NCBI GenBank assembly: GCA_964291215.2
Contig: OZ219790.1
Coordinates: forward strand, 896,001 to 960,000
DNA: 64,000 nucleotides
Reading direction: 5' to 3'
Source of the DNA: Alphaproteobacteria bacterium
Lineage (GTDB): Bacteria; Pseudomonadota; Alphaproteobacteria; MPNO01; UBA830
Below, in pieces: positions 1,317 through 28,879 of the stretch. Both the position numbers and the translations under genes were made by a program. Positions within the stretch are counted from its first letter, which is position 1; each line of letters opens with the position of its first letter. The notes under the pieces are model-generated. The model did no database searches, was not told where the DNA came from, and saw only the letters and a list, made by a program, of their open reading frames with translations.

Positions 1317-1544
1317 CACTGTGATCCCACGCTGCTAATCCGGCGACGACTGGCGAGATTTTTACAGTTTGCGTCGCGCTGCAATCGTGCCGCCAAGGCT
1401 CGATGAAGCCTTCTCGGCACGTAACTGCTCACCCCCTAGTTCCGGCTTGATGTCGGGATAGAGTAACGAACGGGTTTTCGTGGAGATTTGACACTGCAGG
1501 CCGATTCGTTTAGTGGTGGTCATCGAGAACGACGGGGACCGCCA

Positions 1545-1735
1545 GTGGGCTACTTTGGATCGAAGGCGACGAGCGGGCTGTGCCAGCTGCTTCCGGGGCT
1601 CCAGCCCCCGCATGATCTGTATGTGGAAACGCATCTCGGAGGCGGTGCGCTGATGAAGCGCAAGACGGAGTACCGGAAGATGCCGCCGGGTGAGCGCCAG
1701 GCGATGCTCGCGGCGAGGCCGGGTGATAGCGACGG
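1545..1735 (+). pseudogene. Internally deleted Dam-like DNA adenine methyltransferase
   Basis: GYFGSKATSGLCQ...ETHLGGGALMKRK is joined directly to C-terminal YRKMPPGERQAMLAA; homologous to the intact gene at 27774-28433. Confidence 0.85.
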
Positions 1736-2628
1736 GCGGCGCGCGAGGAGTTCGAAGCGGCCAGGATCGCGGCGCTGCCGGCAAGGTGGCGGAAGAGGCC
1801 GTGATCCTCGACATCCTCATCGTCGTCCTTCTGGAGAAGACCACGCACGAGCCGGAACTCCGGTCTACCGCCGTCACAGACGGACAAGAGCGTGCCGGGA
1901 GCAACGGCCCGAAGCCGAACCGGCAGATGGGCGACAACCTGCGCAAGACCATCGTCGAGGAAACGGTCGCGGCCTGCGGCGCCGACGGCCCCGTCGAGCG
2001 CCGCACGACATCGTGTTCGAGGTCGCGCCGCGTCGACGCCGAGGAATGCCCGAAGTGCAAGGCCCGGTTCCCCGACAACATCCCGTGCAGTACGGCATCC
2101 AGGCCCTCGTCATCAACCTGCTGGTCGCCCAGATGCTGTCCCTGCGCCGTCGCGCTCGTGCAGGCGATATCAAGCTCTCCGAGGCCTCGGCCATGCTTTC
2201 ACGATGCGTCATGGGAGGAGGCCGCCGTGGCGCACCTCCTGCAACGCCCGATGTCGACGATTTCGGATCAACGGCAAGTGGCTCCATGTCGTCGGGACGT
2301 GCAAGTTCCCGTACCGCAAGCAAGAGATCGGCCCGTGCTGCAAGGGCGTCCTGGGCCTCGTACATGGCAGTGTAGCCACCAGCGGCAGCCACCTGCTGCG
2401 CGAACTGACCTTCGTCGTCGAGACTACCGCGCGACTGATGAAGAGCCTGCTCCCTGCCACAAGGTCAACAAGAGCGCATCCAGGACCCTGAACGACGCCG
2501 TGCGCTACCGCACCATCAGGGCGCCAGGGAACTGCCCGACATCCCGACGAAAGGAAAACGCATCGCAAACGCGCACAACCTGTACAAACGTCTCGTGAAA
2601 CACGAAAACCTGCGCTTCATAGACGACC

Positions 2629-4074
2629 ATCGCGGTAGGGAACCGGGTTACCCCCCGCACAGAACCGGACGTGCGCTGTTCGCTCCTCCCCTGACGACAA
2701 GGCGCTGGTTTGGCCACAGATGCTGGCTCAGTGGGCAGCGGTGAGGGTGTCTGTGTCCCCGGTGAAGTCCTTTTGGGAGCGTCGCCGAAGGGCACGCAGC
2801 TGTTTGTATTGGTGTATGAACTTCTGCAGGCTGCTTCCCGGAACGGCGTAGTAGCAGCCGTTGATAACTCACCACTTGGCCGTTTCGTGCCGGTTATCGT
2901 GCCACCGCTTGCGCAAGGCCTCCTTGATCCGCCGCAGGGTACCCGTTTGCGACCGACCCTGAACCTGCCTTTCCTCGTCTGTTCGCAGAAGTGCGTCATG
3001 CCGAGGAAGTCGAACGTCTTGTCCACGCTTCCGGCGGTTCGCTCTGGCAAACCGACCGAACTCGATGATTTTCCGGGTGCAGTTCAAGTGGGCCAGTCTC
3101 TCCCCAAGGTCTCAGCGTCGCCCAGATGCTGAAAGCCGCACACGAAGTCGTCCGCATAATGATCGTGTCCCGCTTGCGCCAGTGGTTCTGGAACCAGTCG
3201 CACGTAGTGCAGGTTCGCAAGGCAGGGCGCCGCCCCTTGCGGTGTTCCCTTGCCAGTCGGTCCCTTCCATGACGCCGGCGTCACTTGATGATCAGACCCC
3301 CCGATCCGTGAGCATCGCAACCAGATGGTCGCGGTTGTCGAAGGGGCGTCAACGATCCAGTTGACCTTCCGCCGTTCCACCGTGACGGCGCATGATGCGC
3401 CCCGGCCGGAACCGAGGAACTCCGTTTCGCGGCACCAGAATCACACCGCCCGCTGAAGAATCTTGTCCGAGGCAAGTTGCCCCTCCTTGGGAATGTAGAC
3501 CCTGGAGGCGCCCGCCCCTGTGCACACGGGCGTGCAGAAGTTCCACCCCGTACGTTTGCCACACAACGCCCCGCCGCCGCATCCTTCCTCAAGGAATGGA
3601 ACGCAGAACATCACGTGGTGGAGTAGCGCCACAAGACGCTCTTCCGGGTTCCTCTTCGCTACCTGCCGCCTGTGACCCCCGCTTCTGCGCGCGGCGCGGG
3701 CCAACCGCATTGCCCTTCCCTCCAGCAACTCCGCAGAGCCCTTGTTCGCCGCCTTCAGCGGTACTATGGCCGAATCTGACTTCTCGTTCATCATCGGCTT
3801 ACGGATTTTCCTCTGCGGCCCCTCCACGACAGAGGGGCAAGACCTCCCAGGTCCCTGCTTCGGCCATGGTTCTCGGACCCCGCGGAGCCCCCCTCACCAA
3901 CGCGGCTCGTTGCCTTCGGCCACGACCTCGGCACTCCGGTTTCAAAGCATCTCGTGGCTCAATAGCCTGGCCTGCCGCTCCCCAACGCTTCGCCTCACGA
4001 CGCATGGTTCACGGAGAAATTAGCCTCTCTCGGGACTTGCACCCGGCCACATTCCACCAGTTTGCCTGGCACAC
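2629..4074 (-). mobile_element. Group II intron with decayed RT/maturase, inserted antisense in IS66 tnpC
   Basis: 5' end GTGTGCC at 4074; domain V/VI-like 3' end gcacgtccggttctgtgcgggggg...ccctaccgcgAT at 2629; removing it restores tnpC LRFIDDPDVSFTNN. Confidence 0.88.
2690..3790 (-). pseudogene. ltrA: Group II intron reverse transcriptase/maturase, frameshifted
   Basis: Fragments GTPQGA, YADDFVCGFQ, LELHPE, IEFGRFA and TFDFLGMTHFC lie in different frames. Confidence 0.85.
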
Positions 4075-4413
4075 CCGACGTCAGCTTCACCAACAATGCC
4101 GGAGAACAGAAAATCAGGATGGCAAAGCTCAAGGTGTCCGGATGCTTCCGCTCCACGCAAAAGCATGGTGCCAAGCTACCTCACCTCCATGGCCGCACTC
4201 GGCTACAATCATCACGTCGCAACCCAGATCGCCCTCGACGGAAAAGCCGCAGACATCATCAACGAGCACTACGACCAATCAGAACCCAACTAGGGGTGAG
4301 TAGATACCTCGGCACAAAAATTGCGATCGAGGAGGCGATCTGTGATGACGCGAGCCCCAACGCATTCGGATTTCGCGTCTCCGAATTAGCACAGGATCAC
4401 CGTGGCGCGACCC

Positions 4414-6499: not shown

Positions 6500-6918
6500 T
6501 TATGCGGACATCGTCTCAAGCTGTCACCAAATAATCGAATCCATGTTGTTTGCGTTGGCGTTTTGTCTGTCCGGTGATTTTGGTTGAGCGCTTGCCGACG
6601 GGTCAGTCTGCCGGCTTCAGTTGGTTGGTGTTGGGGTCTTTCGGGGATGATTTGTCGGTCAGTTTGGTTGCCGGCTGATTCTCCGGCGCTGGTTGGGGCG
6701 TTTATATTCGGTGCATGGAACAGGCAAAGAGCATAAGGCACCGGTTTGCAGTCCTTTCTCCTCATCTTGACGAGAAGGGTCGCCAGTTGCTCGCGGCGGT
6801 TGAGGCGCAATGTCTTGGGCGCGGCGGAATAACGCAGGTCTCGGATCTCACGGAGTTGCGCGGTCGACGATTGGACGGGGTCTGAAGGAGATTGACGGAA
6901 CGTATCTACTCACCCCTA

Positions 6919-8140
6919 GTAGTCTAACATTATTGTATTGATGGATATAGTGACTTCAGTTTCGTCCGGGCATCCTTCGTCGTGAAACGCCAGTCGACAG
7001 TGACATCGGCCGCATTGCGGCGCTCGACCCACGCCACGGTCTCCCGCAGCATGGTGTCGCGGTCGGGAATGCGTCGCCGAAGGCATTGCCGCGACAGCGC
7101 ACCGATCTCGGCCATGTTGAGCCAGCTTCCGTGCTTCGGCGTATAGCGAAACTCGAACCGCTTTCGTACCCGCCTCCTCGGGCTCGAAGGCTTCATACAG
7201 TGACTGTGCGTGTTCAGATTGTCCAGCACGATCTTTCTGTCGGGGAAATGGTCGTCGGCAAGCTCTTGGATGAAGTGCGCCCAGTCCCGCGGCGGTCGGT
7301 GACTTTCACCGTGCGCCAGTTCTCGTTGGGCGCAAAGGCCATGAAGAGGTTGGCCGTGCCGTTGCGCTCATATTCATAGTCGACCACCTCCGGCTGACCG
7401 GGGGATACGGGTTTCCTGCTGCCGGCTGGTCTCCAGCACCTCGTCCTTGGCAAAGTCCCGCTGATAAATGTCAAGCACATCCTCCATCGCCGCCACGAAC
7501 TGTGCGCTCCGGTGCGGTGGAATGCACCAGTTCAGCCACGGCTTGATCTCCTTTTTTTTAGCGTCTTCCTGACCGTCTCTTCTGAAATGCGCTCGACAAT
7601 CTCCATCTCCACCAGACGGCCGGCGAGCAGCTTCAGCGTCCACAGCCCTCGGGCGGGGACGAACAGGGCGATCAGCTTCGCCTCCATCGCCCCCGTTTTG
7701 GCCGGCGGTTCACCTGCCCCTTGCGGCTGAGGGCGGCGTCCAGCCCCTTCAGGACGCAGCACTTGCGCAAGCGCTCAATCGTCGCCGTGCCGATGCCCAG
7801 CCCTATGTCGGCATCGACAAGCGCCCCCTCAGCATCAGGACCTGTGCCCGGCGCCAGGCGGCCCCGGTGCCGTCGACGATCGCCTTCAAATCCTGGCGCT
7901 CCTGCGTTGAAAGGGTCACGCGGTAGAGCTTCCTGCCCCGAGAGTTGGCCATATGCGCCGCTCCTGTCATTGCGCCGAAGACCTGCGGGCATGCCCGTTG
8001 TCCGGACCTGCACATGGGGCTGCGGCTGCCTGCCTGTTCGGCATCTGCCCGTGTGGATATCGGTACTGTCCGGATTCCAACGAACGCCGACACGAAAATA
8101 CTACCCACAAAAAACCATCAATACAATGCCGGTGGATTAC
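6919..8140 (-). mobile_element. IS630-family element copy 1, degraded
   Basis: TA duplication in CTAG; ends gtagtc...gattac; DYEYERNGTANLF, LDNLNTH, YTPKHGSWLNMAEI. Confidence 0.9.
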
Positions 8141-8301
8141 TAGTTGGGTTCTGATTGGTCGTAGTGCTCGTTGATGATGTCTGCGGCTTTTCCGTCGAGG
8201 GCGATCTGGGTTGCGACGTGATGATTGTAGCCAAGTGCGGCCATGGAGGTGAGGTAGCTTGAGCCCCGGCACCATGCTTTTGCGTGGAGCATGGTGCGGA
8301 A

Positions 8302-9553
8302 GGATTACGCAACCTGATGTCTGGAAATTGTCGTGAAGCTCTCAGTCATCGAGCTGTTCCCATTTGATCTTGGTTTCGGTTTCCCATTTTTCGTCGATGA
8401 GGACCGCGGTTGAGAGGCGCTCCAACGAGGCGAGGTTCGGAAAGACCCTGACTTTGGAGGTGCGCCGCTTGAGCTCTTGCTGGATCGGTCGCTCGATGCC
8501 GTTCGAGGTTCGCATGCGCTTGTGGTGAGCATCGGGCAAGGTGAAGACAGCGAGCCCCGCATTGTTTTCCAGCCAGGAAGCCTGGATGCTTGTCGCGATA
8601 GCTGGCCACGAGGGTGCCCGGTTCAGCCTCGGCGGTTTGGAGTGAGGACGCATGGCTCCGAGCTGTTTTCCGATACGTTTCCTGATGCCGTTGTTCGGTG
8701 CACGGCGTTTTGTGCCAGGTGGAACTGGCAGCGCTGCCATGTCGCCGCGCCCAGCACCGCGCGTCGTGCCGCTTTCAGCCCGGCATGGTCATCCGAGACG
8801 ATGAAGGTCGTACCATGCAGGGCTAGCAAGCTTTCCAGGAAGGCTCTCCAATGGACCTCGGCCTCGGAGAGCGCCACAGAGAGCCCCAGAACGTGCCTGC
8901 AGCCCCTATTCCGATGGCCGAGAGTACCGCGACATCGCGCACAACGCCGTCATGGCGGGCTTTTTCATAGCGCGCATCCAGGTATTTCATCAGGGGCCGG
9001 TTGCGCGGCGAGTTCTTCATCGAGCAACCTGGTGGCCCGGCTGACCTGAGAAGAGGACAGGCTCCCGAACTCGCGCATTACATCCTGCCGCGTGGAAACA
9101 CCCTTGATGTACATCTCGGCTACAACCAGCATGACGGCGCGAGAAGATCGCTGGCCGCGTTCAAGCGACTGGGGGGTCGTCCCCGTGACCGGCCGTCTTT
9201 GGTACCTGAACGGTAACAGTGGGGGTGTCGATCCGCTTGTAGCCGTTGGCATAGCCCTGTCGTTCCGGTGTCCGGTGGCCCGCTTTCAAGTGCTGCTCGC
9301 GCTCGATTTGCATCGCAAGCTCGAAGAGCTGGCCAAAGACCCGCCCCAGATCCGTTGCTCCGTTTGCGATCAGATGTTCCAAAACGGCCTCAATCGTCGT
9401 AGTGTGTCGCAGGTCCAGTCGCTTCCTCCATGAAGGTTTACAGCTCCATGGGATAGCACGATGGCGCCGCGTTTCACTGGGGGGCTAGCCCCCCAGTGAA
9501 ACGCCTCAAAGCGCAAACCTCAGACAAATTTCCAGACATCAAGTTACAGTACC
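8302..9553 (-). mobile_element. IS256-family element, degraded
   Basis: ~24-bp IRs containing tgatgtctggaaatt; motifs ANGYK, EMYIKGVSTR, YLDARYEK, VSDDHAGL, WQRCQFH, RTSNGIER. Confidence 0.88.
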
Positions 9554-10950
9554 TTCAGGGTCTTGGATGCGCTCTTGTTGATCTTGTGGCAGACCTCACG
9601 GAGCAGGCTCTTCATCAGTCGCGCGGTAGCCTCGACGACAAAGGTCAGTTCGCGCAGCAGGTGGCTGCCGCACAGCTGGTGGCTACACTGGCCCATGTAC
9701 GAGGCCCAGGACGCCCTTGTAGCACGGGCCGATCTCTTGCCCGCGCTTGCGGTGCGGGAACTTGCACGTCAGGGTCCCACGACATGGAGCCACTTACTGT
9801 TGATCCGAAATCGTCGACATCGGGCGTTGCAGGAGGTGCGCCACGGCGGCCTCCTCCCATGACGCATCGTGAAAGCATAGCCGAGGCCTCGGAGAGCTTG
9901 ATGCCGGAGATCGCCTGCACGAACGCGACGGCACGGCGCAGGGACAGCATCTGGGCGACCAGCAGGTTGATGACGAGGGCTTGGATGCCGTACTGCACGG
10001 GATGTTGTCGGGGAACCGGCCCCGGGCCTTGCACTTCGGGCATTCCTCGGCGTCGACGCAGCGCTCGACGACCTCGAACACGATGTCGTGCGGCGCTTCC
10101 GATCGATGGGGCCGTCGATGTCAGCGCCGCAGGCGTCGCAGGCCGCGACCGTCTCCTCGACGATGGTCTTGCGCAGGTTGTCGCCCATCTGCCGGTTCGG
10201 CTTCGGGCCGTTGCTCCCGGCACGCTCTTGTCCGTCTGTGACGGCGGCAGACCGGAGTTCCGGCTCGTGCGTGGTCTTCTCCAGAAGAACGACGATGAGG
10301 ATGTCGAGCAGGATGACGAGGACGCGGATCACGGGCTCTTTCGCCACCTTGCCGGCCGCACGTAGCGTCGCGGTCTTGGCCGCTTCGAACTCCTCGCGCG
10401 CCGCCCGTCGCCATCACCCGGCCTTGCGCTTCATCAGCGCGCCGCCTCCGAGATGCGTTTCCACATACAGATCATGCGGGGGCTGGAGCCCCGGAAGCAG
10501 CTGGCACAGCCCGCTCGTCGCCTTCGATCCAAAGTAGCCCACTGGCGGTCCCCGTCGTTCTCGATTACCACCACTAAACGAATCGGCCTGCAGTGTCAAA
10601 TCTCCACGAAAACCCGTTCATTACTCTACCCCGACATCAAGCCGGAACCAGGGGGTGAGCAGTTACGACGGAACAACATCGCCGCCGGGTCCGGCGCGTG
10701 GGCGGCAGTTGCGCCGGCGACGCGGAACGGTCTTTGCTGTGGGTTTCGAAGAGCACCCGGCATCTTGCGAAGTGTCTTGAGGAGCAGAGCTATTCGGCGT
10801 CGCACTCGCTTGTCGGGCGGCTTCTGGGCGAGCTTGGCTATACGCTGCAGGCCAACGCGAAGACCCGCGAAGGCGGCGTACACCCTGCCCGGGACGGGCA
10901 GTTCGGCCATATAAACGGGCAGGTTGCGGAGTTTCTTGCGGCCGGGGAGC

Positions 10951-11078: not shown

Positions 11079-11227
11079 ATGGAGCGGTTCTTCGACAAGA
11101 TCAAGTAGTTCCGACGGGTCGCCACCCGTGATAACAAGACCGCACGGAACTTCCTCTCCGCCGTGCAGCTGGCCGCCAGCCGATTCTTGCTCCGCAGAAT
11201 CGCGAACCAATTATTTGAGCCCACAGC
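11079..11227 (+). pseudogene. 3' fragment and right end of an IS5-family element
   Basis: Near-duplicate of 13300-13448 (the RRVATRYDK region and tttgagcccacagc end). Confidence 0.8.
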
Positions 11228-11229
11228 TA

Positions 11230-11449
11230 GTCATCTGGAACTGAAGTAAGTATGATTGTATGATGGCGGTTGGAGTGTGAACACGGAGATCATGGCGATG
11301 CCACGCGGTATGGGACGGCCCTTGGCGGTGCTGGTCTTGAGTGGTCAAGGCCGCCAGCGGCCGTCCCGTACCGCGCCCCATCGAGATAACCTCCATTGTC
11401 TGACTCGGGACACAACCATACAATGAACCTTACTTCAGTGTCACGTGAC
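11230..11449. mobile_element. ~220-bp IS630-derived MITE with internal long hairpin, copy 1
   Basis: IRs gtca.ctg..actgaagtaag and cttacttcagt..cacgtgac flanked by TA; internal inverted repeat cgcggtatgggacggcc...ggccgtcccgtaccgcg. Confidence 0.7.
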
Positions 11450-11451
11450 TA

Positions 11452-12628
11452 GTAGTCTACCGACATTGTATTGATGGTTTTCGGCGGGTAGTATTTCCGT
11501 GTCGACGTTCGTTGGAATCCGGACAGTGCCGATATCCACACGGGCAGATGCCGAACAGGCAGGCAGCCCCATGCGCAGGTCCGGACAACGGGCATGCTCG
11601 CAGGTCTTCGGCGCAATGACAGGAGCGTGGCCAACTCTCAGGGCAGGAAGCTCTACCGGATAACCCTTTCGGCGCAGGAGCGCCGGGATCTGAAGGCGAT
11701 CGTCGACGGCACCGGGGCCGCCTGGCACAGGTCCTGATGCTGAAGGGCGCTTGTCGATGCCGACATTGCGCTGGGCACGGCGACGGTCGAACGCTTGCGC
11801 AAGCGCTGCGTCCTGAAGGGTCCGGAGGCCGCCCTCAGCCGCAAGGAGCAGGTGAACCGTCGGCCGAAACGGGGGCGATGGAGGCGAATCTGGTCTCGTC
11901 CCCGCCCGAGGGCTGTGGACGCTGCTCGCCGGCCGTCTGGTGGAGATCGTCGAGCGCATTTCGGAAGAGACGGTCAGGAAGACGCTAAAAAAAAGAGATC
12001 AAGCCGTGGCTGAACTGGTGCATTCCACCGCACCGGAGCGCACAGTTCGTGGCGGCGGACGTGCTTGACATTTGTCAGCGGGACTTTGCCGGGGATGAGG
12101 TGCTGGTGTGCGAGGCCAGCCGGCAGCAGACGAAGGCCCCCCCCCCCCGTCCCCCGGTCAGCCGGAGGTGGTCGACTATGAATATGAGCGCAACGGCACG
12201 GCCAACCTCTTCATGGCCTTTGCGCCCAACGAGAACTGGCGCACGGTGAAAGTCACCGACCGCCGCGGGACTGGGCGCACTTCATCCAGGAGCTTGCCGA
12301 CGACCATTTCCCCGACAGGAAGATCGTGCTGGACAATCTGAACACGCACAGTCGCTGTATGAAGCCTTCGAGCCCGAGGAGGCGGGTGCGAAAGCGGTTC
12401 GAGTTTCGCTACACGCCGAAGCTGGCTCGACATGGCCGAGATCGGTGCGCTGTCGCGGCAGTGCCTTCGGCGACGCATTCCCGACCGTGACACCATGCGG
12501 CGGGAAACGGCAGCATGGGTGGAACGGCGCAATGCGGCCGATGTCACTGTCGACTGGCGTTTCACGACAAAGGATGCTCGGACGAAACTGAAGTCACTAT
12601 ATCCTTCAATCCAATAATGCCAGACTAC
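11452..12628 (+). mobile_element. IS630-family element copy 2, degraded
   Basis: TA-flanked gtagtc...gactac; paralog of 6919-8140. Confidence 0.9.
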
Positions 12629-12630
12629 TA

Positions 12631-13448
12631 GGCTGTGTACCCAAATGTTGACATTTTGCATGATCTGCCTCATTCTTGTCGAAAGCGATTCACAAGGAGA
12701 GTGAAGGATGAGCGGCGACCGACACGACATGAGCGACGCGGAATGGGAAGTTCTCCGCTCGGTGCTTCCTGACAAGCACTAGGGCCCGGAGCGGGTGCAT
12801 GACCGGAGGAACGGGATATTCTTCGTGCTTCGCACCGGTACGCCGTGGCGCGACCTGCGCTACGGTCCGTTTGCTTCAACCGCTTCAACCGGTGGAGCAA
12901 GAACGGCACCTGGGCATGGAGAAGCTTCAAAGGCTTACGAGCGGTGATGACGGGAGCGACGATGGCCCGCCGGTTCATCTGCGCATGGTGAACTCCTCGT
13001 CGGTGCGCGTTCACAAGCTGGGATGTCCCGGGACGACGAGCCTTCGCAAATCGGGCCGTGGCGGACGAACGACGAAGGTCCATCTTGGCGAGAGGGTGAA
13101 GACCGTGTTCCTGACCCCGGGCCAAGCGGCCGACTGCGCGCAGGCGCTTCTCGCCGGGCATGGCGAGACGGTGGTCGGCGACAAGGCCTACGACACCGAC
13201 GCCATCTGATCGAGACGGCAGGAGCAACCGCGGTCATGAAATCCAACCGGACATCGCCACGGCCGCTTGACCGCGAGATCTACAGGATGCGCAACCTGGT
13301 CGAGCGGCTCTTCGGCAAGATCAAGGAGTTCCGACGAGTCGCCACCCGTTATGATAAGACCGCACGGAACTTCCTCTCCGCCGTGCAACTGGCTACCAGC
13401 CGATTCTTGCTCCGCAGAATCGCAGACCAATTATTTGAGTCCACAGCC
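12631..13448 (+). mobile_element. IS5-family (IS427-like) element, degraded
   Basis: IRs ggctgtgtacccaaat and atttgagtccacagcc, TA-flanked; MSDAEWE, LRTGTPWRDL, GDKAYDTD, YRMRNLVERLFGKIKEFRRVATRYDK. Confidence 0.88.
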
Positions 13449-13450
13449 TA

Positions 13451-13670
13451 GTCATCTGGAACTGAAGTAAGCATGATTATATGATGGCGGTTGGAGTGTG
13501 AACACGAAGGTCATGGCGATGCCACGCGGTATGGGACGGCCTTTGGCGGGTGCTGGTCTTGAGTGGTCAAGGCCGCCAGCGACCGTCCCGTACCGCGCCC
13601 CATCGAGATAACCTCCATTGTCCGACTCGGGACACAACCTTACAATGAACCTTACTTCAGTGTCACCTGA
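13451..13670. mobile_element. ~220-bp IS630-derived hairpin MITE, copy 2
   Basis: Near-identical to 11230-11449 with the same IRs and internal palindrome. Confidence 0.7.
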
Positions 13671-13804
13671 CTAGCACAGGTTCGCAGTTCCGTTGCACCT
13701 GCGGGCGATGAAATCTTCCCACCCGCTTTCCGCCGTTCGCGGATCGACAAGTGAAATCATGACGCTCATCCGGGCCTCCCCGGGCTGTGGTTTTCTGTGT
13801 CTGG

Positions 13805-15154: not shown

Positions 15155-17194
15155 CATGATGATCCCGCGCTGCTAAACCGAAGTTCCAGTCACAATCAGA
15201 CGCATCATTTTGCATGTATTGACGTTCGAGAGAATCGGGTGTGTCGCTACCGGGAACGCTACAGGCGCACGCCGAGGTGGTCCAGGGCCTTTCTCTGAAG
15301 TGAGGTGGGGCGTGTGGTGACCTGGAAGGGATCGGTGCTTGCAAGGCGGGGAGCCACGGTGTTGCGGGTGAGGGTGGCGAGGTCGCCGAGGAGCGTGCGG
15401 AAACTGTGCACCGGATCTCCGTCAGCGTTCCGCTTGCTGCCGGCCTTGGCCCGGGCGCTCTCCGATACCCTTGCCGGTGCCACGATGGGCGGCCACCGGG
15501 CGCCTTCGCCATCCTCGTCCTCGAACAGCAGGGGCTTCAATCTCTGACGCATGTGCCATTCGACGTAGTAGGCGAGCATACACAGGAAGATGTGGGCCCG
15601 GGGTTTGGTGCGGTGGTAGACGGGACGGACCTTCAGGTCCTTGAGGCTGCGGAAGGCCCGTTCCACGGAGCTCAGCCGCTTGCAGGCGCGTACCGTGCCG
15701 GGACCGTCGAGCTCGCTCTGCGGCAGACTGGTGCGGACCACGTAGAGGAGCCTGGCCTCGGCAGCGATGGCAGCCTCATCGCGCCCATAGGTGAAGACAC
15801 CGTCATCGTCGATGGACCACGTGAAGTGCTTCGCCATCTTGTACCGACCTTGCCGATCCGCTCCCCGATCTTCCCGGCGCTTGTCGCGCCGTGTCGCTGC
15901 GGCAATCGGTGCGAGCCTCGGTGGCCTCGAGCAGCTCCTGACGCTTGCGAGCCCGGTCCTCGGCCAGCAAGGGGTTGCGGCAGAGGCGCTCGCCGGGATA
16001 CGCATCGCTGGTGATCTCCACCAGGGCTCTCTCGTCGAAGAGCGACATCTCGATGTCGCCGGCCTCCACCAGTGAACGGATGCCCCTCAAGGCGCTGATC
16101 TAGGCCCGCAGGCTTCACCTCCTCGCGCGCCTCGGTCCCCCGATCCCCCACCAGCACCACCTTCGCAAGGGAGAACCGCTCCTGCAGCGTGGCGATCTGC
16201 GAGGACAGCGTCGCCGGGTTCGCCGTGTTGCCGGGAAACACCTGCACCGACACCCGTCCCGATCACACAGAAGGCCGACTGCAGCTTGCCCTTCTTGCCA
16301 TCCCGGGAATGACCTCGCCTGGCCAAGGGGCACGCTCTCCCCTCCATCCACACGGAAGTCAGGAGCACCAGGCAGCCCTCTTCGAGGTGCCGCTTCGCCA
16401 GGGATCGCTCGATCCTCTCCTGACGCTCCAGGAGCCGGCGCCGTAGAGGACATCCTCGTCCCCTTCCGCCTCGAGGATCTCGCCCAAGGTACTCGCCGCA
16501 GTGGCCTCGGCCAGCCCTCGGGCCAGCTTCGAAGCGGGTGCCAGGATCCTCGCCACGATCAGGGCCAGCACCTGATCGCGCCTGGGAGAGGGCTTCGGGT
16601 CGATCCGCCTGTCCAGCTTCTTCAGGGTTCCCAGCACTGCGGCGACATGACCATGGGGAAGGGAACGGACGATGTCGAAGGCATCGTCACCGAGGGGTTC
16701 GTTCTTCAAGAGGCGCCGCAGGATCTCGACCTTCCCCATAGGCCAAGAGGAGAGATTGGCGATGGTGCGTTTCCTGACCTTTCCGTTTTCGCGCCATCCT
16801 TCGCGCAGGAGGATGGCGGGGGGGGGGGGGGGGGGGGGGCGAATTGCGGTTGAGGATGATGTCTATATACATGGCAACGTATATAGAAGATCAAAATTTT
16901 ATATCAATAGGTTATTATACCTATACATAGTAATATTTTAGTACCGTCTCCGCGCCAGTTTACCAACAAGATCAACCGCTTGGAGAGATTCTGCCGCCGA
17001 AATCAGGGAGAACTTCGGGCTAATCGAGCGACGATCGGCGAGATTTTTCAGTCTGCGTCGCGCTGCAATCGTGCCGCCAAGGCTCGATGAGGCCTTCTTG
17101 ACGCGGAAAATTGCGATCAAGGAGGCGATTTATGATGACGCGAGCCCCGATGTACTCGGATTTCTCGTCTCCGAATCAGCATGGGATCGTCATG
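15155..17194. mobile_element. ~195-bp MITE (copy 2), interrupted by IS1634
   Basis: IRs catgatgatccc and gggatcgtcatg; near-perfect 9-bp TSD gcagcccag/gcagctcag; 17019-17194 aligns with ~1333-1420 plus 4316-4404. Confidence 0.75.
15178..17018 (-). mobile_element. IS1634-family element copy 1, degraded
   Basis: IRs ccgaagtt and aacttcgg; flanks gctaaa/gctaat; MYIDIILNRN, SLPHGHVAAV, GHSRDGKKGKLQ, VGDRG, VERAFRSLK. Confidence 0.88.
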
Positions 17195-26185: not shown

Positions 26186-26302
26186 CTAAATTCTGTTTGA
26201 TTTTTCGTAACTGCCCAGGTCTGCTTCCGGCGATCAGCCACGGGTTATGGACTGAAGCTTCCGGTCTGCTGCCGCGGACGCGGAGGCGAGCGGCGGGGGA
26301 TT

Positions 26303-27700
26303 TCAGAGGCGCAGTCTCGGGATCAGCTGCATGGGATCGGGATGCGCCAGGGTTTCGAGGACATTCCAGCGTTGCTTTCGGGCTGTTGCGATGACGGAAC
26401 GCAGGCTGGCGAAGTCGCGGGCGCCTTGCATTGATCGGAAGCCGCCCGAGATTTTCTGGCGCAGCTTGCCCATGCGGAGGTCGCGCTCGGCCTGGTTGTT
26501 CGAGAAGGGGGTTCTCGGGTCGGTGAGGAAGCGCAGGCAGCCCTCCTTGTATTTCTGGAGCCGGAGGGCGAGGTTGTGACCGATGCGGCGCTTTTGTCGT
26601 CCGTGCTTTCCGCTCTGGAGGGGCGCCCTCTCTTCGTGAGAGGCGATGGCCTGCTCAAGGATGCGGTCCCAGGCTCGGGAGATGCGGGCCACCAGTGAAG
26701 CGGGCAGGTCGCGGTCATTCTTGCGGGCGAAGCGGGCGGCTCTGTTGGCACGGCTGAGGAGCCGGTGCGTGGTGGCTGCCCAGTTCTCGATCTCGATCAG
26801 GGCTTGGAGTTCGCGCAGGTGATGGGCATTGCAGGCCCCGTGGCGCACGCCTTGGAGAGCGAAGTAGGTGGCGTAGTCGTCATGGATGACGATGCCGTTG
26901 AGCTTCTCGTCGATGTGGCTGCGCCCGGCGGCGATGCGCAGGATGGTCAGCAACGGGGTGCACAGTACGTGGAGCCATTGGGTCCGGGCGGCGATGCGGA
27001 TGCCGGTCTCGTCGAGGTGTTTGACCGGGGCCGCGGTGCGGATGATCTCGCCGACACGGTCGAGGAAGCCCTCGAAGCGCCGGGCGGTGCGTCTGCCCAT
27101 GGCGGCGATGGTGGCGGTTGAGAGCCTGACCGCGAAGAGGTCGCTCATGACTTCGGCGACGCGCTTCTCCGGAATGAACTGCGCGTGCAGCAGGTAGGTC
27201 ACCCACGCGGTGATACGCGGCCCGTACTGGACCGGGGCGCCGTTCGGGAAGACGGCTGTCGTCACGGTGCCGCAGGCGGCACAGAGGCAGCGGTGCTCGG
27301 TGACCTGCGGTTCGGGCACATCGAAGACCTGCCGGCAGACGGGGGCTCCGTGACGCTCAGCGGCCGACAGCGGCGCGCCGCAGCCCGCACAGGCGCAGGG
27401 ATCATGATCGACGACGTGGTCGGGCGTCGCGGTCCGCTCCAGAGTGGTTCCCTTGTGGCTGGCCGCCGCCTGTCGGACGTGCCGCGCCGGGTGCGCTGGG
27501 GTCCGCTCTTCTTCTTCAGACCGTCGCTGGCCGGCGACCGGGAGCTGGTGGTGCTGTCGAGCGCGGCACTGCGCTCGAGTTCGGCAATCCGCTCGCGCAA
27601 GTGGGCGTTCTCCCGCTCCAGCGCGTCGTTCTCCCTGACCAGCGCCGCGCTCAGGCGCAGCAGCCCCTGGCCCGGATGGCTTTGATGACCGTCATCGCCA
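26303..27700 (-). pseudogene. tnpC: IS66 transposase TnpC, frameshifted in its N-terminal third
   Basis: Coiled coil and DSTTSSRSPASD in one frame; QYGPRI, HLDETG, IHDDY, CNAHHLREL, PFSNNQAERDLR, KISGGFRS in another. Confidence 0.88.
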
Positions 27701-27773
27701 GGCATTGTGGGGTGAAAAGGTCCTGCAGGCACGCAAAAGCCTCGTCGTGGCCGGCGAGGTCCTCGCGCCACCG

Positions 27774-28433
27774 TCACGGGACCTCGACGGCCATGATCGC
27801 GGCCAGCACCGCCAGGCGTTCGCCCGCCGGCATGGCCTCGTAGAGCCGGCCCCAGTTGGCCGCCTTGCGCTTGATGCGCTGGCGGTCGGTGAAGTTCCGG
27901 CCGGCGAAGCGCGCCCAGTGCACCCGGTCGGGCGCGAAGTTGAACCACACCACCTCGGTCCGCACCCGGGCCTGGGTCGTCACCTGCAGCGCCAGCCGGC
28001 GCCAGCCCGACAGCAGGTCGTCATAGAGCGCAGACGGGTGGCCCGAGACCATCACCTGGCAGGGCAGACCCTTGAGCAGCTCAAGCAGCGCGACGTGGTC
28101 GGCCTCCGCATACTCGAAGCGGTAGCGCTGCGACGAACGCCGGGTCGCGTGCAGATAGGGCGGATCGCTGTAGACCAGCTCCGGGCCCAGAAACGCAAAC
28201 GACGCCAGAAAGGAGTGGGCGCAGCCATGCACCAACTCCACCGGGTAGTCGCAGCCAAAGGCCTCAAGCGCCCGCTCATCGAGGTCGATCCCGATCGAGC
28301 GCACGGCAGCAGGCTTGCGCTTCATCAGCGCACCGCCCCCCAGGTGACTCTCGATATAGACAGAGTGCGGCGGCATCAGCGCAATCAGCGCCTGGCTCAG
28401 ACCCGTCGTCGCCTTCGATCCGAAATACCCCAC
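27774..28433 (-). CDS. Compact Dam-like (D12-class) DNA N6-adenine methyltransferase, 219 aa
   Basis: GTG start with ggaggag RBS; YFGSK, ESHLGGGA (motif I), GIDLD, VYSDPPY (motif IV), VMVSG, TEVVWFNF; no frameshift. Confidence 0.88.
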   Translation of the reverse strand: MGYFGSKATTGLSQALIALMPPHSVYIESHLGGGALMKRKPAAVRSIGIDLDERALEAFGCDYPVELVHGCAHSFLASFAFLGPELVYSDPPYLHATRRSSQRYRFEYAEADHVALLELLKGLPCQVMVSGHPSALYDDLLSGWRRLALQVTTQARVRTEVVWFNFAPDRVHWARFAGRNFTDRQRIKRKAANWGRLYEAMPAGERLAVLAAIMAVEVP

Positions 28434-28879
28434 CAGCCGCTCCTCCCATGCGAGAGGGCAACCCATAGGCGCGCGCGCCTATGCAGTCAAGGCCGAGAGC
28501 AGCGACACGGCGAACAAAATCAGCAAGCTCTCTCACTTGGCAGGGTACCTGGGTAGTTACGATTTTTCAAGGCAGCACTTGGGTTTTGCGGGGGCGCGGG
28601 TCGGTGCGGGAGATTTTTTACAGTTTTCGCTGACTTTTCTGCACTAGAGTTGTCATGGTGCGGGGATGTCGGTTCACAAGCACAGCGCGTCCTGCCCGAT
28701 TCACGTCGCAGCTCCGGAAGGGTCTGTCCGAGCATCCATGTTTCCTGGCAAGGTTTTGGCGGGTGTCTGCGGTGATGTTTTCTGTGGCTGTCCACAAGCG
28801 GTGTGGGATTTGCTCTGCGAGCGAGGCGACATGAAGCTTGTGGTCCCGGCGGCGGGTTGCCGTCCATTGGTCACGTGAA

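Follow-up and report, generated by a model that had tools for sequence, protein, structure and literature searches.

The closest described relative of the system presented here is Upf31, a protein encoded by the IncP-1 beta plasmids pBP136 and R751. According to its published characterization, Upf31 represses its own promoter ∼50-fold, this repression is lost in the variants Y180A, F185A, and W198A, and the repeat CAGCATCG is proposed as its operator. The protein also influences Kor-regulated genes of the plasmid, and in the experiments described neither protection or methylation of GATC sites nor a SMRT (single-molecule real-time) sequencing signal was seen (Elg et al. 2025, PMC11997246). We have found a homolog of this autorepressor directly upstream of the transposase gene of an insertion sequence (IS) of the IS66 family, here termed element B, in the DNA of an Alphaproteobacteria bacterium (contig OZ219790.1, positions 896,001–960,000; this whole stretch of 64,000 nucleotides is called the window). 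We suggest that the promoter, the palindrome, and the Upf31-family gene together are a portable cassette which probably acts as a negative feedback throttling the production of the transposase.

Methyltransferases as passengers of insertion sequences, for example in IS220, and methylases which regulate their own synthesis, for example M.Ecl18kI, are already known (PMC11891212, PMC2760811). Among the described IS66 elements the ISBst12 group, which is defined by a single open reading frame, comes closest (ISDge4; PMC12898284). Like its members, the elements of the two types found in the window, A and B, have imperfect inverted repeats (IRs) of the GTAACT type, an 8-bp target site duplication (TSD), an IS66 TnpC, and no tnpA or tnpB. 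They differ in that a conserved second gene with promoter and operator is located upstream of tnpC, and in that the same cassette is also present in an IS66 element carrying tnpB and tnpA and in an IS701 element (see below).

Three IS66-type elements, A1, A2, and B, are found in the window (Table 1). A first-pass annotation had placed their ends correctly, and each is bordered by a perfect 8-bp TSD (CTCGGCAC, GACGGAAC, and GATTTTTC, respectively). The IRs of element B begin with GTAA as is usual in the IS66 family, and the order of its parts is left IR (IRL), methyltransferase-fold open reading frame, IS66 tnpC, and right IR (IRR). No space is left for tnpA and tnpB, and the classical layout tnpA-tnpB-tnpC is not found. 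The order IR-methyltransferase-tnpC-IR had been proposed for all three elements; this is true for B but not for A1 and A2, in which only 40-codon remnants without the DPPY motif and a fragmented tnpC are left. The tnpC of B is recognized by PF03050 (E 4e-39) and by NF033517 (234.5 bits with a cut-off of 180), and TnpC of the B type is 34–37% identical to ISGst1 and ISGka4. Its GTG start codon overlaps the stop codon of the upstream gene (GTGA). The source genome harbors 12 copies of element B, 11 of which have both IR and TSD and 10 of which have an intact open reading frame of 219 codons. Contigs of the public runs X1 and X2 omit exactly 2362 bases (2354 + 8) at the insertion site of B; as the target is itself a repeat, this gap gives only the length of the insertion. 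The host of the insertion is another multi-copy element.

The 219-aa protein contains a motif I (ESHLGGG), the DPPY motif, and basic C-terminal helices, and it is 43% identical to Upf31 of pBP136 across 217 aa, i.e., nearly full length (residues 1–217, C-terminal domain included, E 1e-63). At the positions of Y180, F185, and W198 of Upf31 the window protein has F, F, and W, its F181 and W194 being the equivalents of F185 and W198. W198 is conserved in 98 of 98 aligned proteins and F185 in 87 of them. The DPPY motif is shared with Upf31 and occurs in every one of the 80 IS-borne proteins (80/80), although it had not been used as a search pattern. The predicted structure (pLDDT 90) consists of a compact Dam-like core and two C-terminal helices, and a Foldseek search with this model ranks Dam of Escherichia coli first (TM 0.53–0.58), with DpnM and T4 Dam also among the best matches. 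Thus, the designation as Dam-like methyltransferase stands with respect to the fold and to DPPY. At the sequence level the match is weak: a Pfam search at E 0.01 gave zero matches, the TIGR00571 score of 24.8 bits is far under the cut-off of 114.85, and a sequence search of the PDB was of no use, yielding DpnM at E 0.25 besides two repeat proteins. In Dam the target-recognition domain is inserted between the motifs binding S-adenosylmethionine (SAM) and DPPY. In the window protein motif I and DPPY are separated by 59 residues, all of which the model assigns to strands and helices of the core, and therefore there appears to be no space for such a domain. The prediction of a homodimer scored 0.17 (mark 0.42) and is counted neither for nor against a dimer. 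In 18 of 18 pairs tested dN/dS is 0.08–0.29, similar to the value of the transposase, indicating that the gene is under purifying selection.

The gene is preceded by a predicted sigma-70-type promoter with a palindrome placed between its two hexamers. A strict sigma-70 scan does not call the promoter of B because the −10 box lacks its last T; the assignment rests on the conservation within the family, the consensus of which is TTGACA/TATGCT. Among the metagenome loci analyzed, the best 80 of 553, the arrangement TTGACA-n-CATAG-N10-CTATG-CT is found upstream of the gene in 78. In these relatives the hexamers are 17 bp apart and the right half-site lies over the −10 box; the left one plays no part in the promoter itself. 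The information content, calculated for 74 distinct promoters, is 0.9–2.0 bits per base in the half-sites and 0–0.5 bits in the 10-bp spacer. The upf31 promoter is identical in spacing and register (a −35 box, 1 bp, a first half-site of 5 bp, N10, and a second half-site covering the −10 box), and the common 8-bp half-site CAGCATAG agrees with the IncP-1 beta repeat CAGCATCG at seven of eight bases. The two systems differ in the operator core, which is CATAG in the IS-borne cassettes and CATCG in Upf31, in the downstream partner, which is a transposase in the IS, and in the surroundings, as the IS cassette has one site per element and neither a KorB partner nor clustered repeats. The exact operator of B occurs 13 times in the source genome (6.15 Mb), 12 times in promoters of B, and other spacer lengths give 0–1 matches. 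Upstream of stand-alone genes on plasmids of Xanthomonas, Shewanella, and Acinetobacter (loci L113, L116, and L117) two to three tandem sites of the CATAG-N10-CTATG type are present, often with TGGCCA adjacent; they resemble the unexplained clustered repeats that IncP-1 beta plasmids carry.

The operators and the proteins vary together. When position 9 of the operator region is G, position 26 carries the compensating C (5/5 such promoters). The residue equivalent to F185, a column examined because of the published mutant, is H or R at eight of eight loci having C26 in the operator and F at 70 of 70 loci without it (78 loci in total). In covariation this column ranks first of 221, with a nominal p of 4e-11 and 4e-4 for the next. 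An element of the source genome (two copies) outside the set of 78 loci follows the same pattern, as R is paired with CTACG. The next residue is R in proteins with CATCG operators (3/3, all of one clade) and T in four plasmid proteins with CATAG. In the model both covarying residues are at the start of the basic helix 181–200, which fits a direct reading of the DNA. Thus, the covariation points to the operator being read directly by this part of the protein. We also considered that changes of F185 simply mean loss of function; this was rejected for most cases, as H or R goes along with an altered but intact operator.

The cassette is rare in the samples of cultured genomes and widespread in metagenomes. 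In a scan of about half of the genome collection, the best 80 of 496 matches gave 75 loci in 15 assemblies, which according to the assembly names belong to Alphaproteobacteria, Dehalococcoidia, Binatia, and Tectimicrobiota. Directly downstream of the cassette an IS66 tnpC is found at 70 of these loci, an IS701 transposase at two, and neither of them at three; both IR and a TSD agreeing at 7–8 of 8 bases were seen at 48 of the 75. The prevalence is patchy: in the order of the source genome the cassette is present in 7 of 78 genomes and in its class in 3 of 301, the source genome included in both counts. In the metagenomes, NCBIfam assigned 54 of 65 loci with a downstream open reading frame of at least 60 aa to IS66, and seven of the other 11 frames are truncated and represent the N-terminal part of one of these TnpC types. 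An IS701-type frame follows at three loci and a weak IS4-type one at another, and a transposase is absent at two of the best 80. Only 7 of 41 bounded metagenome elements have a TSD; this low share may be due to short-read contigs often being joined at IS ends.

The downstream transposases form seven clusters which are unlinked at 40% identity, six of IS66 and one of IS701. In all of them the position of the cassette is constant, directly upstream of the transposase gene and in the same orientation, and in several of the seven lineages the stop and start codons overlap. Element B and its intact relatives of 2.2–2.5 kb consist of these two genes only. In addition, an IS66 element of 3212 bp in genome G036 (L023:1665–4876) has the unusual order cassette, tnpC, and then, at the far end and on the opposite strand, tnpB-tnpA; it is flanked by 8-bp TSDs and its Upf31-family gene is present in 22 identical copies. 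An IS701-family element of about 2.6 kb in genome G079 (L111:4515–7146; also L099 in G078) carries the cassette as well and occurs in at least five full or partial copies. At L155, L168, and L201 the cassette precedes another IS701-type frame. More distant homologs are found in 196 plasmid records, 134 of them of conjugative plasmids, and in 95 phage records, P2-like phages among them; all 10 plasmid and phage homologs inspected are outside any IS. In a tree of 51 sampled proteins the IS-borne ones are a separate branch (support 99; the sampling favored close relatives), and the clade of the window protein (support 99) has partners of the B type, of the A type, and of IS701. A strict co-descent with one transposase was tested and rejected: uniting the 17 proteins associated with A-type transposases lowers lnL by 113 (p-AU 0.001; a test on a quick tree, chosen after the tree had been seen). 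Thus, the first-pass annotation was right in regarding the gene as a stable module and not as a one-off capture, given the dN/dS values and the IS66 tnpC directly downstream at most genome loci. Its assumption that the gene is inherited together with one IS66 group and merely replaces tnpA and tnpB does not hold, as the trees are incongruent and the cassette is also present in IS701 and in an IS66 element which keeps tnpA and tnpB; the incongruence refutes the co-descent and not the function. In the literature covered we found no description of an IS66- or IS701-borne Upf31-type cassette, most subscription papers and ISfinder being outside this scope. On plasmids of Synechocystis and Pseudomonas (L120 and L121) an Upf31-like gene is coupled to a DNA glycosylase-like gene and faces genes for a PfkB kinase and a queC-like product; an operon of defence type may likewise be headed by the cassette there.

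The anatomy and conservation of the cassette, its homology to Upf31, the overlapping stop and start codons, and the covariation lead us to suggest the following as the most likely mode of action. One promoter would drive the genes of repressor and transposase as a single transcript, as the anatomy of the locus suggests. In the RNA runs only 5–6% of the sequence words were present. The protein, probably as a dimer, would bind the operator and block the −10 box, and by analogy to Upf31 this would repress the shared transcript and so lower transposition. Judging from the anatomy, the repression would work in trans on every copy sharing this operator, and hence the output of transposase would be buffered as copies accumulate. 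Upon entry into a cell without the repressor a burst of expression would be expected. Variants of the first C-terminal helix together with matching operator variants would create separate specificity groups, so that co-resident families need not cross-repress each other. Control of transposition, which had already been considered in the first-pass annotation, is thus the function we favor, with operator binding in place of an epigenetic mark as the favored mechanism.

Several observations weigh against this proposal. A pure repressor does not need the invariant DPPY motif (80/80). The copy number can be high despite intact cassettes, as in G036 with its 22 identical gene copies, and in many A-type relatives tnpC starts 3–30 bp past the stop codon without overlap. 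Upf31 may have further roles, since Kor-regulated plasmid genes are affected. The covariation has exceptions as well, namely locus L105 (A with CTATG) and two full-length proteins of the A lineage in the source genome (H or R with TTAGT); the operators of these three proteins look decayed. Its p-values are inflated by kinship, as related proteins are not independent. The eight loci with H or R fall within a single group of 12 that has weak support and in which four F proteins are interspersed, so that the changes which arose independently are few and cannot be counted with certainty. Moreover, at the 5 of 80 loci that had two candidate sites the anchor was chosen by the best palindrome.

The invariant DPPY motif would be explained if the protein was a methyltransferase acting on its operator only. 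The mark would be set on the long bipartite operator, most likely at the −11 adenine of the −10 box and at its mirror partner, and the repression would be heritable and relieved by replication. The regulatory output would be the same as that of a repressor and the chemistry different. We regard this as the main alternative but consider it unlikely. The best matches of the modeled fold, E. coli Dam, DpnM, and T4 Dam, are in agreement with it, as is the near invariance of the putative target (A25 in 74 of 74 promoters, its mirror T10 in 73 of 74, both also present in the upf31 promoter); nevertheless, A25 is fixed by the −10 box too, and the spacer has no invariant adenine. In the SMRT test of Upf31, the cloned fragment began shortly before the start codon of upf31 and the strain lacked pBP136, so that the operator seems to have been absent from the test (PMC11997246), and a site of 16 bp is expected 0.001 times per 4.6 Mb and its 10-bp core about 4 times. 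Against this reading, methylation has been seen for no member of the family, and the SAM pocket could serve ligand sensing or base flipping without transfer. The control of the IS10, IS50, and IS903 promoters by Dam shows the principle, but there the enzyme is that of the host (PMC9296519). In its most elaborate form, a portable epigenetic transposition switch, a compact dimeric methyltransferase would read a 26-bp bipartite operator via its C-terminal helix, one residue standing for one base in a simple code, and would methylate or flip the adenine at −11 in the promoter of its gene. IS families unrelated to each other would have installed it repeatedly before their transposases, with specificity groups like the immunity groups of phages. 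This would also account for Upf31 looking inactive, and we regard it as a speculative and rather doubtful proposal.

A DNA adenine methylase of broad or short-site specificity, which would protect against restriction or change the host methylome while the palindrome only autoregulates a costly enzyme, is very improbable. The Dam-like fold and the catalytic motifs would suit it, and antirestriction methylases are common on conjugative plasmids and P2-like phages, the replicons on which homologs of the protein are found (134 of the 196 plasmid records are conjugative). However, the short distance of 59 residues between motif I and DPPY leaves no space for the target-recognition domain of Dam, and an IS travels inside the DNA of its carrier and would gain little from an antirestriction enzyme of its own. 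Autoregulating methylases such as M.Ecl18kI do exist (PMC2760811), but Upf31 had neither GATC protection nor a SMRT signal (PMC11997246). The two roles suggested in the first-pass annotation, protection from restriction and alteration of the host methylome, thus look unlikely, the characterized homolog being an autorepressor without a methylation signal. Equally hard to maintain is the idea of a passive or selfish cargo that regulates only itself and was captured repeatedly by elements whose transposase ignores the cassette or borrows its promoter. In its favor, the gene stands outside any IS in all 10 plasmid and phage records inspected, the annotation shows no gene of this kind upstream of the closest cultured relatives of the B-type TnpC (45–47%; 3 of 3 records), and the A lineage has reached 224 left ends, with a disrupted gene in 166 of the 168 copies scored. 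Against it, the position and orientation in front of the transposase are fixed in seven lineages, several with stop/start overlaps, and dN/dS resembles that of the transposase; the decayed A copies have also lost tnpC, and hence little can be learned from their spread about an autonomous copy and its cassette.

The proposed self-repressor cassette also differs from other known arrangements. With the transporter IS (tIS) that carry a passenger methyltransferase, for example IS220 of the IS1380 family, it shares the additional gene annotated as methyltransferase; passengers, however, are by definition uninvolved in transposition (PMC11891212), whereas the cassette gene is in the predicted operon of the transposase, is equipped with an operator, and is found again and again with different lineages of transposases. 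M.Ecl18kI and M.SsoII are methyltransferases that bind an operator and block their own promoter, as is predicted here. They are active methylases of the C5 type with a nuclease partner (PMC2760811) and bind DNA through a separate domain, which in M.SsoII is N-terminal, whereas the IS-borne protein has an N6-adenine fold, probably reads the DNA via its C-terminal helix, and has no nuclease. The cassette is a foreign module of plasmid and phage type with the fold of an enzyme, moved between IS families. TnpR of Tn3 and InsA of IS1 are also element-encoded DNA-binding proteins which lower the expression of the transposase, but they are part of the element's own machinery.

Element B itself is probably non-autonomous now. 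In every uninterrupted copy of the source genome tnpC contains a frameshift. Compared with three intact relatives it lacks ten stretches of 5–9 bp, of which six leave the reading frame unchanged and two cancel each other out, with a net frameshift near 27459–27469. None of the ten small deletions is located in codons 1–217 of the upstream gene (p about 0.03). The same deletions are present in contigs of the runs X1 and X2, either of which is possibly the source of the window, and an undeleted allele is found in X3. Between B and this allele 40 bases are deleted and none is substituted across 27222–27669; therefore, deletions outpace point mutations. A programmed frameshift was considered, and a canonical slippery site was not seen. 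An assembly artefact is ruled out by the short-read contigs having the deletions of B and by 73 of 112 gaps being common to copies of A (40 of the 117 bounded A copies were aligned). In the unselected IS DNA of the source genome such short deletions have a sharp size peak, 60 of these 112 gaps being 5–7 bp. The open reading frames of at least 300 aa of the source genome yielded no intact TnpC of either type, A or B, and hence A1, A2, and B are all probably non-autonomous.

As already noted in the first-pass annotation, the transposases of A and B are clearly different; they belong to distinct lineages (intact relatives 31–36% identical). The right end of the A copies in the window is GTAT. The Upf31-family gene has lost about 470 bp in A1 and about 530 bp in A2, DPPY included. 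In the source genome the A family is large and decayed, mostly 1.3–1.7 kb long, with an exact TSD in 117 copies. An expansion of the A family through loss of the repressor, suggested by its 224 left ends, where the gene is disrupted and the operator has decayed, versus 12 copies of B, was not adopted because it is a single comparison, the A copies also lack tnpC, and G036 has 22 intact copies. The part of the window from 1 to 31636 is an IS graveyard: 38% of the window has at least three matches elsewhere in the genome, all of it in the first half. A repeat of ∼370 bp with a 102-bp inverted repeat inside is present at 11082–11452 and 13302–13674 (91–97% identical, 2.2 kb apart) and flanks an inserted IS630-type copy. 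At 16811–16850 a run of about 24 G, possibly a sequencing artefact, lies within a repeated element.

Table 1. Features of the three IS66-type elements in the window (strand: +, −, or. for none assigned)
Feature	Position	Strand	Remarks
Element B, IS66 family, 2354 bp	26207..28560	−	12 copies in the source genome
TSD of B, 8 bp, adjoining IRR	26199..26206	+	
IRR of B	26207..26220	−	
IS66 tnpC of B	26303..27777	−	PF03050 and NF033517 matches
Upf31-family methyltransferase-fold gene	27774..28433	−	219 aa from GTG 28433
GGAGGA, ribosome-binding-site-like	28441..28446	−	
Predicted sigma-70-type promoter	28462..28490	−	−35 TTGACT, 17 bp, −10 TATGGG
Predicted operator CATAG-N10-CTATG	28464..28483	.	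between −35 and −10, overlapping −10 box
IRL of B	28547..28560	−	matches IRR at 13/14 bases
TSD of B, 8 bp, adjoining IRL	28561..28568	+	
Element A1, decayed copy of second IS66 lineage	1421..4307	+	TSD CTCGGCAC
A1 remnant of Upf31-family gene, codons 1–40	1545..1664	+	short C-terminal piece after it
Decayed group II intron within A1 tnpC	2635..4074	−	ends approximate
Element A2, decayed copy of the lineage of A1	6902..10666	−	TSD GACGGAAC
Decayed IS630-type element (HTH_32 + DDE_3), nested next to A2 IRR	6919..8140	−	ends approximate
Decayed IS256-type (Mutator) element nested in A2	8302..9553	−	ends approximate
A2 remnant of Upf31-family gene, codons 1–40	10423..10542	−	

How IS66 elements limit themselves, especially those with a single transposase, is poorly known. 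The cassette would be a swappable regulatory module from the plasmid and phage pool which has been fitted to at least six clusters of IS66 transposases and to IS701 elements. For the Upf31 family, characterized only in 2025, the many natural pairs of protein and operator provide a ready-made specificity code, and they make it testable whether its members are pseudo-enzymes or operator-only methylases and whether feedback in trans controls the copy number of an IS. In addition, many genes on mobile elements annotated as DNA adenine methylase may in fact encode repressors.

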